DNA from: a virus
Taxonomy: Duplodnaviria; Heunggongvirae; Uroviricota; Caudoviricetes
Virus record (IMG/VR): IMGVR_UViG_2663762627_000002
Strand: one strand, 5' to 3'
DNA: 9,362 bases
The notes under the pieces were generated by a model. It made no database searches. It was given only the letters and a program-made list of their open reading frames with translations, and had not been told where the DNA came from. Shown here piece by piece: positions 163 through 7,763 of this stretch (the first letter of the stretch is position 1; each line of letters opens with the position of its first letter). The position numbers were made by a program, and so were the translations under genes.

Positions 163-212
163 ATTTCTGATAGTTAACATTACAAGAATTTCTGATAGTT
201 AACATTACAAGA
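163..212. repeat. Perfect tandem duplication of a 25-bp unit (ATTTCTGATAGTTAACATTACAAGA x2); putative subterminal transposase-binding repeats of the IS
   Basis: Units at 163-187 and 188-212 are identical. The core AGTTAACATTAC recurs in inverted orientation at 2034-2045, and TTAACATTA at 2009-2017. Confidence 0.85.
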
Positions 213-1859: not shown

Positions 1860-2008
1860 GAAAAATCCCCCAGAGAATTGTCTGGGGACATTTTAGAATG
1901 GTTCAAAGGGGACATTACAGCTTGGTGTTAACAATAGCCTGCTTCTCCGTGCCTTTCGGCACGTAAGAGGCTAACCTACATGTGTCTAGCATGAAATTGG
2001 CCTCAGAT

Positions 2009-2045
2009 TAATGTTAAGCGTCTTGCAGGACGCGTAATGTTAACT
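2009..2045. repeat. Right-end inverted copies of the IS subterminal motif (TAATGTTAA at 2009-2017; GTAATGTTAACT at 2034-2045)
   Basis: These are reverse complements of the core of the 25-bp tandem units at 163-212, with similar spacing. Confidence 0.65.
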
Positions 2046-2193
2046 GGGGCTTTTCTCTATCTGCCGTTGGTGTCCATGCCCGAGGCAGATAGCCTCAAGC
2101 ACCCGCAGTCATTCTACTTAACTAAGATTTCCCCGCAAACCGTTTTTGTCCAGCACAGTAAATATCCAACTAAACCAATGGAGTTCGCTGTAT

Positions 2194-3525: not shown

Positions 3526-3882
3526 TTAAAAAATCAGAACGCCGTGCGGCCTCAACACCCGAAAGGCTTCTTTAAATCTCTGTCGCGAATCATCACGCCA
3601 GGCATCTTTATTCAGCCGTCCATATTTCTTTCCCATCCAGGCGTTATCACCAACACTCTCAAGATGCGGAGGGTCTAATACAACCATCGAAAAAGATGCG
3701 TCTGCAAATGATAATGCACGAAAATCTGCGATAATGTCAGGGCTGATAATCAAGCGTCTCCCATTGCGTAATGTGTATCCTTCTTTTCTGATATCGCTGA
3801 ATATCGCCCGTTCGTCAGACTTATCGAACCAGAACATGCGGCTGCCACAGCACATATCAAGAATGGTTGCCGGTGCACTCAC
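3526..3882 (-). CDS. Compact SAM-dependent DNA methyltransferase-like protein, 118 aa, possibly C-terminally truncated
   Basis: GTG start overlaps the stop of the upstream gene (GTGA at 3879-3882). Contains ILDMCCGS (motif I-like), VVLDPPH (DPPY/H-type motif of amino-methyltransferases) and LRPHGVLIF. Ends at TAA with no plausible continuation in any frame. Confidence 0.55.
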   Translation of the reverse strand: MSAPATILDMCCGSRMFWFDKSDERAIFSDIRKEGYTLRNGRRLIISPDIIADFRALSFADASFSMVVLDPPHLESVGDNAWMGKKYGRLNKDAWRDDSRQRFKEAFRVLRPHGVLIF

Positions 3883-4341: not shown

Positions 4342-5361
4342 TTATCCTCTGAAACCAGGCGGAATTTCTGTATCCGGTTCAGAAATATGATTAACACAAC
4401 GCTGTACAGGTGAACGTCCCAGGCGGATGACCAGTTCGTCCCATTTTTCGCGGAGCTTTGACGGGCTCATGATGTTTTTTACCCAGAATGGATCTCGCTG
4501 AACCCGACCAAACATTTCGCAAATTTGTCTGTGGCTTCTGCCATCCAGCATCCGCATTGTGCGCACGTCATTGGCCCAGGCAGTCCAGTTAGGCTCTTTT
4601 GGTCGCATGATCTCGCCATCATCACTGGCTGCCTGTTCGTAGAGACCCACGATCCGCCCCCAGATCCACTGCGCACACGCCAAATCCTCCCTGCTACCCC
4701 ACTGGCGTTTTTTCGCACTAAACACAACCGCGTCGGAGTTCCGGGTTAAAAAATCCTGTTCAGTCGTCTGCGGGTCCGGTTGCGAAGCTTCCGGACGAAA
4801 AGTGTTTTTATTCTCTGTAGTAATCTCTGTTGTATTCTCTGTAAGATCATCAGGCCATTTTGACCCGATGACATTGGGTCGTTTTGAACCAATGGAGCGT
4901 TTCATTTTGACCTCTTCCATCGTGTCATTTTGACCTGATGGAGCGGCGCATTTTGAACCGATGGATTCGCTCAATTTGCCACCATCTAAAAGCTCGCTCC
5001 CATAGTTGATCGTGTAGAAATTGGTCATATCGCGCTTTGATTTATTGAGCTTTTCACAACGCAAAAGCCCCAGCGTTTTCAGACTTGCAAACGCGCGCTT
5101 TAACGTTGACTCTGACCAGAATGGGAACTGTTCCAGCCATTGTTCCGTTGTGTTATAAATCCAGCGAACACCATCACATTCCATGCCGGAGTTGGTATCT
5201 CTCAACCAGTAGTGCAGTTGTTGCAAAACAATGGCTTCGTTTAAGCCAATTTTCATTGCCAGCTGCGTGTTTATAACCAGTGGGCGTTCAGCAAAAAGAA
5301 GGCTCATAATTCCATCCAGCTTTTTGTTGGTATTGCTGTCGATACGCAAGTTTGAAAGCAA
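4342..5361 (-). CDS. Phage replication initiator (replisome-organiser / O-like) with an internal origin; 339 aa as listed, true start probably the ATG at 5307 (322 aa)
   Basis: N-terminal winged-helix-like domain (LNEAIVLQQLHYW...TLKRAFASLKTLGLLR). Central low-complexity linker encoded by DNA iterons. Sits in the lambda O position downstream of the cro-like gene. The track start at 5361 is TTG; ATG 5307 would overlap the upstream gene by 20 bp. Confidence 0.8.
   Translation of the reverse strand: MLSNLRIDSNTNKKLDGIMSLLFAERPLVINTQLAMKIGLNEAIVLQQLHYWLRDTNSGMECDGVRWIYNTTEQWLEQFPFWSESTLKRAFASLKTLGLLRCEKLNKSKRDMTNFYTINYGSELLDGGKLSESIGSKCAAPSGQNDTMEEVKMKRSIGSKRPNVIGSKWPDDLTENTTEITTENKNTFRPEASQPDPQTTEQDFLTRNSDAVVFSAKKRQWGSREDLACAQWIWGRIVGLYEQAASDDGEIMRPKEPNWTAWANDVRTMRMLDGRSHRQICEMFGRVQRDPFWVKNIMSPSKLREKWDELVIRLGRSPVQRCVNHISEPDTEIPPGFRG
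4809..4844. repeat. Three tandem 12-bp repeats (TATTCTCTGTAG / TAATCTCTGTTG / TATTCTCTGTAA) next to the iterons; candidate origin-flanking element
   Basis: Direct repeats with 12-bp period immediately downstream (in the gene's direction) of the iteron array. They encode TTENTTEITTEN in the protein. Confidence 0.7.
4855..4965. repeat. Five iterons, ~23-bp period, consensus CATTTTGA(A)CC-N-GATGG; putative replication origin inside the initiator gene
   Basis: Copies at about 4856-4870, 4879-4895, 4903-4917, 4926-4941 and 4948-4963. They encode the SIGSK-type repeats of the protein linker. The arrangement matches ori-lambda inside gene O. Confidence 0.8.
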
Positions 5362-5809: not shown

Positions 5810-6023
5810 TGTTCAACCGCCCCGCCCGCTTCGTCTTACGATATTCATCATAAACTTTGGGATCATACTGAAGCTCCCCGCCAGATGCCTCCTGTAGACG
5901 CATCGCGCGACCTTCGGGAACTAAATCCCCTTTCCAGCTATAAAGCGAAGCCAAACGAATACCTGCTGCTTGTGCAAGTTTTGTTTTTGAACCGAAATAC
6001 AAAAGAGCGTCAGTTTTAAGCAT
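5793..6023 (-). CDS. Cro-like small HTH DNA-binding protein, 76 aa (YdaS-like)
   Basis: ATG at 6023 with AAAGGTG 8 nt upstream. HTH-like segment GSKTKLAQAAGIRLASLYSWKG. Divergent from the repressor gene across an operator-bearing intergenic region. Confidence 0.8.
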   Translation of the reverse strand: MLKTDALLYFGSKTKLAQAAGIRLASLYSWKGDLVPEGRAMRLQEASGGELQYDPKVYDEYRKTKRAGRLNNENHS

Positions 6024-6106
6024 TTAAAACACCTTTATTGTTAGTCATAACTAACAAGATAGATGTTAACAAAAACATAGTCAATACGATTTAGCATTAG
6101 CTAACT
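6024..6106. promoter_or_regulatory. Divergent promoter/operator region (OR-like) between the cro-like and repressor genes
   Basis: Perfect palindrome TTGTTAGT-cata-ACTAACAA (6038-6057), palindromic 8-mer TGTTAACA (6064-6071), palindrome TTAGC-atta-GCTAA (6091-6104). On the minus strand, TTGACT, a 17-bp spacer and TATCTT form a PR-like promoter reading into the cro-like gene, with the 6038-6057 operator over the start region. Confidence 0.6.
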
Positions 6107-7239: not shown

Positions 7240-7612
7240 GTAATTAAGGAGTTCTCCACGGGTGAGGTGGAGTGCGTGCGCCGGACACGGGTGCGCATCC
7301 GGAACTGACAGTTTACTGAAAGGATATTTCCCTGAAAAGTCAGACCATAACGCGAAAGCGCACGGCGAGGTAGCTGGTTCATAGATAGCCTGTCGTTAAA
7401 TTTTCGTCGACCGTGCGCTTCCGGTTGTGGCAACCCGCGAAATGGCGCGGCGGTAAGTATGGCGGGGTTATTCCTTCCCCGTTGAGGACACCGGGTTGTC
7501 AGGTTGACCATACGCTTAAGTGACAACCCCGCTGCAACGCCCTCTGTTATCAATTTTCTGGTGACGTTTGGCGGTATCAGTTTTACTCCGTGACTGCTCT
7601 GCCGCCCTTTTT
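7240..7612. other. GC-rich, ORF-poor, hairpin-dense segment; candidate structured ncRNA or unrecognised element
   Basis: No plus-strand ORF of 60 aa or more across ~400 bp. Many stems, including CTCCAC/GTGGAG (7254-7272), CGC-GAAA-GCG (7351-7360), GCGCACGG/CCGTGCGC (7358-7365 / 7411-7418) and GGGTTGTCA/TGACAACCC (7493-7529). Visibly higher GC than the flanks. Confidence 0.3.
7570..7612 (+). terminator. Terminator-like structure (GGCGG ... CCGCC followed by CTTTTT)
   Basis: Stem 7570-7574 / 7602-7606 encloses a sub-hairpin and is followed by a T5 run at 7608-7612. The large internal loop makes this uncertain. Confidence 0.35.
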
Positions 7613-7617
7613 AAAGT

Positions 7618-7763
7618 GAATTTTGTGATGTGGTGAATGCGGCTGAGCGCACGCGGAACAGTTAAAACCAAAAACAGTGTTATGGGTGGATTCTCTGTAT
7701 CCGGCGTTAATTGTTAACTGGTTAACGTCACCTGGAGGCACCAGGCACTGCATCACAAAATTC
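7618..7763. promoter_or_regulatory. Control region bracketed by a perfect 13-bp inverted repeat (GAATTTTGTGATG 7618-7630 / CATCACAAAATTC 7751-7763), with nested dyads
   Basis: Inside are the dyads ACGTTAA/TTAACGT and CCTGG/CCAGG, two GTTAAC hexamers, and a copy of TTCTCTGTA (7691-7699) that also occurs in the origin-adjacent 12-bp repeats. Ends 19 bp before the ATG at 7782. Confidence 0.4.

Follow-up and report, generated by a model that had tools for sequence, protein, structure and literature searches.

A probable lambda-like replication origin within the initiator gene of a Qin-type prophage of Escherichia coli

The prophage locus

The 9362 nucleotides analysed here, referred to throughout as ‘the window’, come from a Qin-like (dicA/dicC) lambdoid prophage of Escherichia coli and make up its immunity and replication region. 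The RefSeq annotation of E. coli ATCC 8739 places the locus within a Qin-type prophage. One flank comprises hokD, relBE and flxA. The centre comprises, on the minus strand and in this order, dicC, a ‘YdaT-family’ gene, a gene for a ‘hypothetical protein’, a DUF977 gene and a methyltransferase gene; the other flank comprises dicA, ydfABC, dicB, an exonuclease and an integrase. In profile searches the product of dicC is Cro-like, that of dicA is a repressor of CI type and the YdaT-family protein resembles cII, and Rfam locates DicF and sok (Table 1). A promoter scan predicts a pR-like promoter upstream of the cro-like gene, and no internal promoter within the proposed origin described below. Judging from gene order, transcripts from the predicted promoter would cover dicC, the cII-like gene and the gene for the hypothetical protein—the initiator gene of this report—by way of that origin.

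The Qin region of ATCC 8739, W and other E. coli strains is 100% identical to the window, and the 1020-bp open reading frame stretch occurs with 100% identity in these and many other strains. It is matched in 2797 of 5426 complete E. coli genomes (about half), and in 1749 of the 5426 at a coverage of at least 80%. Deposited phage genomes with the same module are PhiR42_1, mEp460_ev081, HannyBb and mEp460_4F5; with mEp460_ev081 the identity over the origin DNA is 99.5%. In ATCC 8739 the neighbouring prophage region has decayed, and contains pseudogenes and a fragment of an insertion sequence (IS), so the proposed origin might be intact in sequence and yet idle.

Table 1. Features of the window, with the evidence on which each is based
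Feature	Positions	Strand	Evidence
O-like replication initiator gene, 321 aa (RefSeq WP_000054512.1, ‘hypothetical protein’)	4342–5307	minus	ORF, translation, RefSeq CDS in ATCC 8739
N-terminal winged-helix-like domain, codons 1–104, presumed iteron-binding module	4996–5307	minus	AlphaFold model, Foldseek
Array of six iterons, imperfect palindromes phased at 23 bp, of which five are good and one is degenerate	4848–4987	minus	Repeat detection, core positions
Three tandem 12-mers, ACAGAGAwTAC, and A-run; presumed DNA-unwinding element	4800–4844	minus	Repeat detection, GC, stability
G+C-rich palindrome, GTCCGG-N11-CCGGAC, just past the A-rich block	4774–4796		Inverted repeat
Helical C-terminal domain, codons 183–296, homologous to the lambda O C-terminal domain	4420–4761	minus	BLASTP, tblastn, model helices
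Final 21 codons, copying the C-terminal end of DnaT, a host primosomal protein (SEPDTEIPPGFRG)	4345–4407	minus	phmmer versus PDB, NCBIfam
pR-like sigma-70 promoter upstream of dicC (cro-like)	6056–6084	minus	Promoter scan, 9/12 consensus positions; consensus match only
DicF	7556–7607		Rfam
sok	1933–2104		Rfam

The initiator protein

The PHROG family 391, ‘replication initiation O-like’, matches residues 17–321 of the protein over positions 11–298 of a 298-position profile (E 1.1e-91), and PhiR42_1 carries an identical protein annotated ‘DNA replication protein O’. Searches with tblastn matched the O proteins of lambda and of Stx phages. By BLASTP, residues 147–294 align with residues 135–270 of lambda O (34% identity; E 1e-26), and similarity between the N-terminal parts is absent. 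Pfam searches (E ≤ 0.01) returned no family, and so neither Phage_rep_O nor RepA_N (PF06970); NCBIfam also returned no family, the match to DnaT there being confined to the tail. A match to YteR in the PDB sequence search was spurious.

The AlphaFold model of the initiator is poor (mean pLDDT 52, from a shallow alignment of 12 sequences) and was used for domain boundaries only. At this low confidence it has helix and strand at residues 13–100, no secondary structure at residues 101–180, and beyond these the helical C-terminal domain. The best PDB matches to the model in Foldseek were chains of Rep–DNA complexes (4pql_B and 5kbj_H, which we take to be RepA_N structures) and generic winged-helix proteins, at E values of 0.04–0.07; with a model of such low confidence as the query, nothing appeared at E ≤ 0.001. 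In sequence, the N-terminal domain is 43–73% identical to its counterparts in the initiators of phages or prophages of enterobacteria, Bacillus and Staphylococcus.

The C-terminal end of the protein, VQRCVNHISEPDTEIPPGFRG, resembles that of the host primosomal protein DnaT: phmmer against the PDB matched DnaT chains 2ru8, 6aep and 9zbt, with 14 of 21 residues identical. The motif IPxGFRG is conserved in variants of the initiator despite differences in the residues that precede it. The idea of a DnaT-like C-terminal domain was dropped because hhalign, comparing the initiator family with DnaT, aligned the tail only (residues 293–321), leaving the N-terminal domain and the three-helix, single-strand DNA-binding C-terminal domain of DnaT unmatched. 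(In its tail, the DnaT sequence used for that comparison is consistent with the alignment to the PDB chains.) No gene for a helicase or its loader (P, DnaC-like or DnaB-like) lies downstream of the initiator gene, this place being taken by the DUF977/Ren-like gene and the methyltransferase gene, and no loader gene is annotated downstream in PhiR42_1 and mEp460_4F5, the two records inspected. The tail may recruit the host primosome or DnaB–DnaC; the papers on DnaT that were consulted name no binding partner for the extreme C-terminal tail, so this role is one that we infer.

Repeats within the initiator gene

Two sets of repeats, iterons and 12-mers, occupy the middle of the initiator gene, and Tandem Repeats Finder and a repeat search agree in placing both where the first-pass annotation had them (4809–4965). 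That annotation also set them wholly inside the coding sequence, in the linker between two domains, and this is borne out: they span codons about 108–167, within the residues that the model, low in confidence as it is, leaves unstructured. Tandem Repeats Finder detects a period of 23 with 3.7 copies at 4882–4965, and the repeat search finds 23-nt units starting at 4848, 4872, 4895, 4918 and 4941. On the minus strand, which is the coding strand, the unit reads CCATCrGGTCAAAATGAcaCGATGG, each being an imperfect 23-bp palindrome of the form CATCnGGTCA-AAA-TGACnnGATG. The core, GGTCAAAATGA (minus strand), lies at 4855–65, 4879–89, 4902–12, 4925–35 and 4948–58, with spacings of 24, 23, 23 and 23 bp. 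Five good iterons had been recognized from the first; a sixth, in register at about 4965–4987 (core 4971–81), had been missed. It is degenerate here, with mismatches at 3 of the 11 core positions, and well formed in relatives.

Next to the iterons are the 12-mers, detected by Tandem Repeats Finder as a period of 12 with 2.7 copies at 4812–4843 and by the repeat search as three units at 4809–4844. In order along the coding strand (4842–4807), these are ACAGAGAATACA, ACAGAGATTACT and ACAGAGAATAAA, followed by the A-tract. The GC content of the block (0.30) is the minimum for the gene, although this is merely moderate AT-richness. Within the gene, duplex stability is lowest in the 30-bp segments that start at 4797–4807, at −32.7 kcal/mol versus a gene mean of −40.9 ± 3.0 kcal/mol. 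In the BLASTP alignment with lambda O, the peptide encoded by the 12-mers, LTENTTEITTENKNTF, lies opposite the peptide encoded by the lambda AT-rich tract, DTKDTITKEKRKDYS. The block is presumed from this position to be the counterpart of that tract, and a putative unwinding element.

Clustering is what sets these repeats apart; over the window as a whole, the motif counts alone are non-significant. Five iteron cores fall within 100 bp, versus a maximum of two in 1000 Markov-1 simulations, and three 12-mers fall within 30 bp, versus a maximum of one. These simulations reused motifs derived from this very sequence, and the independent support is therefore comparative, from other genomes. Tandem Repeats Finder reports no other repeat clusters in the window besides two short, two-copy repeats. 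No DnaA box was found in the origin, and GATC sites are not enriched. The 9-mer TTCTCTGTA of the 12-mers does recur at 7691–7699, between DicF and dicB, as the first-pass annotation observed. Its suggestion that the recurrence hints at a shared DNA-binding factor finds no support, because recurrence is at chance level: 14 occurrences of 9-mers of the repeat region elsewhere in the window, versus 10.2 ± 4.2 expected.

Conservation of the repeats as DNA

The first-pass annotation held that the DNA repeats produce matching repeats in the protein. This is true of the 12-mers, which encode TENT, TEIT and TENK, and only partly true of the iterons. Since 23 is not a multiple of three, successive iterons are read in frames 2, 1, 0, 2, 1 and 1, so that all three are used, and one DNA core is translated five times over as GSK, GQN, VKM, GSK and GSK.

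Comparison with the Trabulsiella and Edwardsiella homologues, which are full-length and have N-terminal domains 61–66% identical to that of the window, points in the same direction. In the two folded domains, 0.77 of first and second codon positions are identical, versus 0.38–0.40 of third positions, the usual signature of protein-coding sequence. In the iteron array the corresponding values are 0.63–0.66 and 0.60–0.64, and codon periodicity is gone; here, the 9-nt cores are 0.83 identical, versus 0.48–0.54 for the DNA between them. In the 12-mers, 0.83–0.92 of third positions are identical. Differing reading frames cannot serve as proof of selection on the DNA of the 12-mers, as was once considered, because their frame is constant; the argument rests instead on which positions vary and which are fixed. 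Among the fixed positions are synonymous ones, in ACA, in GAG and at the last T of AnT. The free position is the second base of codon 3, where A occurs 16 times, T 16, C 7 and G 7, giving N, I, S or T. By these comparisons, selection on the repeats acts at the level of DNA rather than protein.

Relatives of the initiator and their iterons

Counting iterons among homologous initiators was a check proposed at the outset; the number of copies varies, from three to six. Enterobacterial relatives with N-terminal domains 61–73% identical to that of the window have the same iteron core. A Bacillus prophage (L020; N-terminal domain 55% identical) has iterons of the form GTTCAAAATGAAC, and Staphylococcus aureus phage fPfSau02 (50% identical) has three units, CATCAGGTCAAAATGACCCGA, at 22–23 bp. 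The iterons are unrelated in a Citrobacter relative (L008; 29% identical), in which the 23-bp phasing is kept, in Stx1_14040 (L028; 19% identical) and in Bacillus phage BtCS33 (L029; 16% identical). The same core, then, accompanies N-terminal domains that are 50–73% identical, and different iterons accompany those that are 16–29% identical. Iterons thus co-vary with the N-terminal domain, the classic argument that this domain reads them. Two further relatives, perhaps Rac-like (L016 and L017), have other iterons and no 12-mers.

Variants with parts exchanged or missing bear on the same point. In three relatives (L009, L011 and L012), the N-terminal domain and the origin match the window; beyond the palindrome the sequence diverges completely, and an unrelated C-terminal domain is encoded. 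Relatives retain a palindrome akin to that of the window, and it is the mosaic junction at which alternative C-terminal domains are joined. Because only the C-terminal domain is swapped in these relatives, past the palindrome, the origin can be said to travel with the N-terminal domain. In the E. coli variant P0018 (290 aa), an in-frame deletion has removed exactly 31 codons, which at 93 nt equals 23 + 23 + 23 + 24, as would be expected from recombination between iterons in the same frame. It resembles the ori-minus deletions of lambda, which are likewise in-frame.

The 12-mer block in other phages

The 12-mer block is not peculiar to this module. When IMG/VR was scanned for an exact pattern of two units side by side, the block was found in at least 120 contigs, where, by a rough estimate, a few would be expected by chance. 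It lies directly behind unrelated iterons in Stx1_14040, in BtCS33 and in the Citrobacter relative, and 8 of 10 sampled 12-mer loci have, immediately upstream, repeats with a phasing of about 23 or 46 bp. Among 73 aligned loci, these upstream repeats are many and different in sequence. The 12-mers themselves vary in number from two to five across viral loci, and are read as T-E-x-T in 50 of 56. GC content of the flanks ranges from 31% to 56%, and the block is AT-rich even in flanks of 56% GC. All of the genes tested that host 12-mers (10/10) match PHROG families of phage replication initiators; they are related to one another in their N-terminal parts and diverse in the C-terminal ones. We found no paper that describes the 12-mer block, and a full-text search for the 12-mer sequence returned unrelated primers only. 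Nor did we find, in the literature on the Qin origin, PhiR42 and mEp460, a description of this origin.

One speculative reading of this distribution, to which we give well under even chances, is that the tandem 12-mer ACAGAGAnTAC may be more than a generic AT-rich tract and have a sequence-specific role in unwinding or helicase loading, as an element common to a large family of phage initiators in Gram-negative and Gram-positive hosts. The winged-helix N-terminal domain, with a variable recognition surface, would then read the iterons specific to each family, and a conserved feature of the initiators, or a universal protein of the host replisome, might read one strand of the 12-mers. Initiators of the Qin/mEp460 group might do without a phage loader because their IPPGFRG tail mimics host DnaT and so recruits the primosome or DnaB–DnaC. 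A single block that accompanies numerous distinct sets of iterons, each with a 23-bp phasing, in phages of distant hosts is a simple marker for phage origins, and it may indicate a common step in origin opening or helicase loading.

What the repeats are likely to do

We consider it highly probable that the repeats are the vegetative replication origin of the Qin-type lambdoid prophage, an origin resembling ori-lambda and situated inside its own initiator gene. The first-pass annotation had proposed an origin embedded in the initiator gene and mirroring ori-lambda, and each computational test applied bears that proposal out. The support is computational: the match to PHROG 391, the anatomy of the repeats, their position in linker codons, homology of the C-terminal domain, conservation at the level of DNA, co-variation of iterons and N-terminal domain, and low duplex stability. 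The definition of a lambdoid origin within O as an iteron array with an adjacent AT-rich tract, mid-initiator gene, is taken from PMC7466680, and this is the layout found here. The origin is of a well-known kind, ordinary in principle, and previously unannotated.

By analogy with lambda and with RepA_N plasmids, the origin might work as follows. Upon loss of repression by DicA, the pR-like promoter would transcribe the dicC, cII-like and O-like genes. Dimers of the initiator would bind the five or six palindromic iterons through their winged-helix N-terminal domains, and form a wrapped complex similar to the O-some. The stress of wrapping would open the least stable stretch—the three 12-mers and the A-run—and the C-terminal domain and DnaT-like tail would bring in the helicase machinery of the host, the phage having no P, DnaC or DnaB of its own. 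Replication in situ upon derepression, a possibility raised in the first-pass annotation, is plausible, because the initiator is intact and identical to that of PhiR42_1, and because the pR-like promoter reads across the origin.

Of the other explanations, the one that we take most seriously, while thinking it unlikely, is that the repeats are an origin by descent that no longer functions in this copy, the relic of a decaying element. The distal iteron is degenerate here and well formed in relatives, pseudogenes and an IS remnant lie nearby in ATCC 8739, and some E. coli copies have lost four iterons by in-frame deletion. On the other side, the initiator gene is intact and its product is the same as that of PhiR42_1, and the origin DNA differs by only 0.5% from that of mEp460_ev081. 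Five iterons are left, where for lambda two beside the AT-rich tract suffice in vitro (PMC7466680), and the gene persists at a coverage of at least 80% in 1749 of 5426 complete E. coli genomes. Less likely again, and in our opinion improbable, is that the iterons are mainly control sites—for autoregulation by roadblock, for titration or handcuffing, or for exclusion of related phages—and that initiation takes place elsewhere. Plasmid iterons do function in copy control as well, and PMC3349717 and PMC4488673 describe inhibition of related phages by ectopic lambda origin DNA. An iteron-derived 11-mer occurs again at 5985–5995, near the pR-like promoter, but that recurrence is at chance level, and apart from the two short, two-copy repeats the window has no other repeat cluster. 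The array, moreover, adjoins the stretch of lowest stability in the gene, in exactly the order of lambda, and the pairing of iterons with 12-mers is conserved in many initiator genes.

Least probable of all, and hardly credible to us, is that the repeats are a low-complexity protein linker born of slippage, with no function as DNA. The stretch does encode a disordered, hydrophilic linker, and the near-constant T-E-x-T frame of the 12-mers (50 of 56 viral loci) is what such an explanation would predict. Against this, iteron DNA is conserved across three reading frames while its peptides differ, and conservation tracks the 9-nt cores regardless of codon position. In the 12-mers, synonymous third positions are fixed while the second position of codon 3 is free, and the block stays AT-rich within flanks of up to 56% GC.

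If the repeats are an origin, a protein listed by RefSeq as ‘hypothetical’ in about half of complete E. coli genomes can be named as an initiator with an internal origin, correcting the annotation. An intact origin would also explain possible local over-replication of Qin, seen as coverage artefacts, upon failure of DicA repression, and the module is a candidate for a compact, one-gene replicon for tool building. Two features are notable: the widely shared 12-mer block, and the mimic of the DnaT tail in a module that lacks a loader.

Comparison with known origins

Iterons and an AT-rich tract at the centre of O make up ori-lambda, and the iterons number four in lambda itself and six in Stx phages (PMC7466680). 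The origin proposed here resembles ori-lambda, and the six-iteron origins of the Stx phages 933W and P27, in its location mid-initiator gene, in linker codons, and in its dyad-symmetric iterons phased at about 23 bp. It also shares with them an AT-rich tract that is purine-rich on the sense strand and is followed by a palindrome, a homologous C-terminal domain, pR-type transcription across the origin, and in-frame deletions between iterons. The order of parts—N-terminal domain, iterons, A-rich block, palindrome, C-terminal domain—is that of ori-lambda, since the 12-mer peptide aligns opposite that of the AT-rich tract. It differs in that the N-terminal domain has no detectable sequence relation to that of lambda O, and the iteron is GGTCAAAATGAC rather than the TCCCTCAAAACGAGGGA of lambda, the central TCAAAAyG alone being alike. 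It differs, too, in that the AT-rich tract is composed of tandem 12-mers, there is no P gene, and the initiator ends in a DnaT-like tail.

The RepA_N plasmids provide a second point of reference. In these, the repeats lie within the initiator gene and are bound by the winged-helix N-terminal domain (~120 aa) of its product; the origin encodes the linker, and the C-terminal domain is host-specific and exchangeable (PMC5703833). The initiator of the window shares with RepA_N proteins such as pSK41 Rep this three-part plan, the central placement of the repeats and weak fold matches to the Rep–DNA complex, and its close N-terminal relatives occur in Staphylococcus and Bacillus phages. It has no match to the Pfam family RepA_N, however, and the Foldseek matches (E 0.04–0.07) are to a low-confidence model; it belongs to a phage rather than a plasmid, and its C-terminal domain is like that of lambda O, in contrast to the DnaG-binding domain of pSK41.

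Iterons adjoining an AT-rich element of short tandem repeats are also found in oriV of RK2, with its initiator TrfA, and in F, with RepE, where the repeats are 13-mers. In plasmids of this type, according to PMC10602881, Rep contacts one strand of the opened repeats, which by analogy is a possible model for the 12-mers. The RK2 and F origins differ in lying outside the rep gene and in using DnaA boxes, of which there is none here. A final parallel is oriJ of Rac, an origin of a cryptic lambdoid prophage in E. coli that can fire in situ when derepressed. The origin proposed here would likewise be that of a cryptic lambdoid prophage of E. coli, although the prophage is another one, and so is the initiator.

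Conservation and variation of the probable origin

Tandem 12-mers of the form ACAGAGAnTAC, at 4800-4844 in the window, are present in two to five copies in at least 120 viral contigs. They occur inside initiator genes and, at the loci inspected (L028, L029 and L033-L112), lie directly behind iterons that have a phasing of ~23 bp and fall into many sequence types unrelated to one another. The GC content of the flanks ranges from 31 to 56% across hosts, and Bacillus and Staphylococcus phages are among the carriers. In the relatives L009 and L011-L015, the N-terminal domain and origin are common with the window and the C-terminal domain is unrelated; the junction falls right behind the 12-mers and the adjoining palindrome. 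Many enterobacterial relatives also retain the GATC that separates iterons from 12-mers. There is no overall enrichment of GATC. A methyltransferase gene (3526-3882) lies just downstream.

The E. coli variant P0018 (290 aa) carries an in-frame deletion of 31 codons, corresponding to window codons 116-146. These 93 nt are exactly four iteron spacings, leaving two iterons at most, and the variant is probably a dead origin within an intact reading frame. Three further loci (L003, L005 and L022) are near-identical copies (96-100%) of the E. coli prophage gene in metagenome bins that bear the names Bacillota, Veillonella parvula and Collinsella, placements that most likely reflect binning contamination.

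The 11-mer TTTTGAACCGA within dicC is identical to a portion of one iteron. This recurrence is compatible with chance; the site could also be autoregulatory, and it lies close to the pR-like promoter.

Features of the window, with positions and strands
Feature	Position	Strand	Remarks
25-bp tandem duplication, perfect	163-212		ATTTCTGATAGTTAACATTACAAGA x2; Tandem Repeats Finder
sok antitoxin RNA	1933-2104	minus	Rfam; hok/sok type I toxin-antitoxin system; hokD annotated
DnaT-like tail of initiator	4345-4407	minus	C-terminal end
Mosaic junction	~4770-4800		behind 12-mers and palindrome
Single GATC	4845-4848		exactly between last iteron and first 12-mer
11-mer	5985-5995		within dicC
DicF small RNA	7556-7607	plus	Rfam

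The initiator tail and the genes downstream

Neither in the window prophage nor in mEp460_4F5, a phage record carrying the same module, was a helicase or loader gene found downstream of the initiator. The C-terminal tail of the initiator, SEPDTEIPPGFRG, is a near copy of that of the host DnaT, with 14 of 21 residues identical, and the likeness between the two proteins is confined to this tail.
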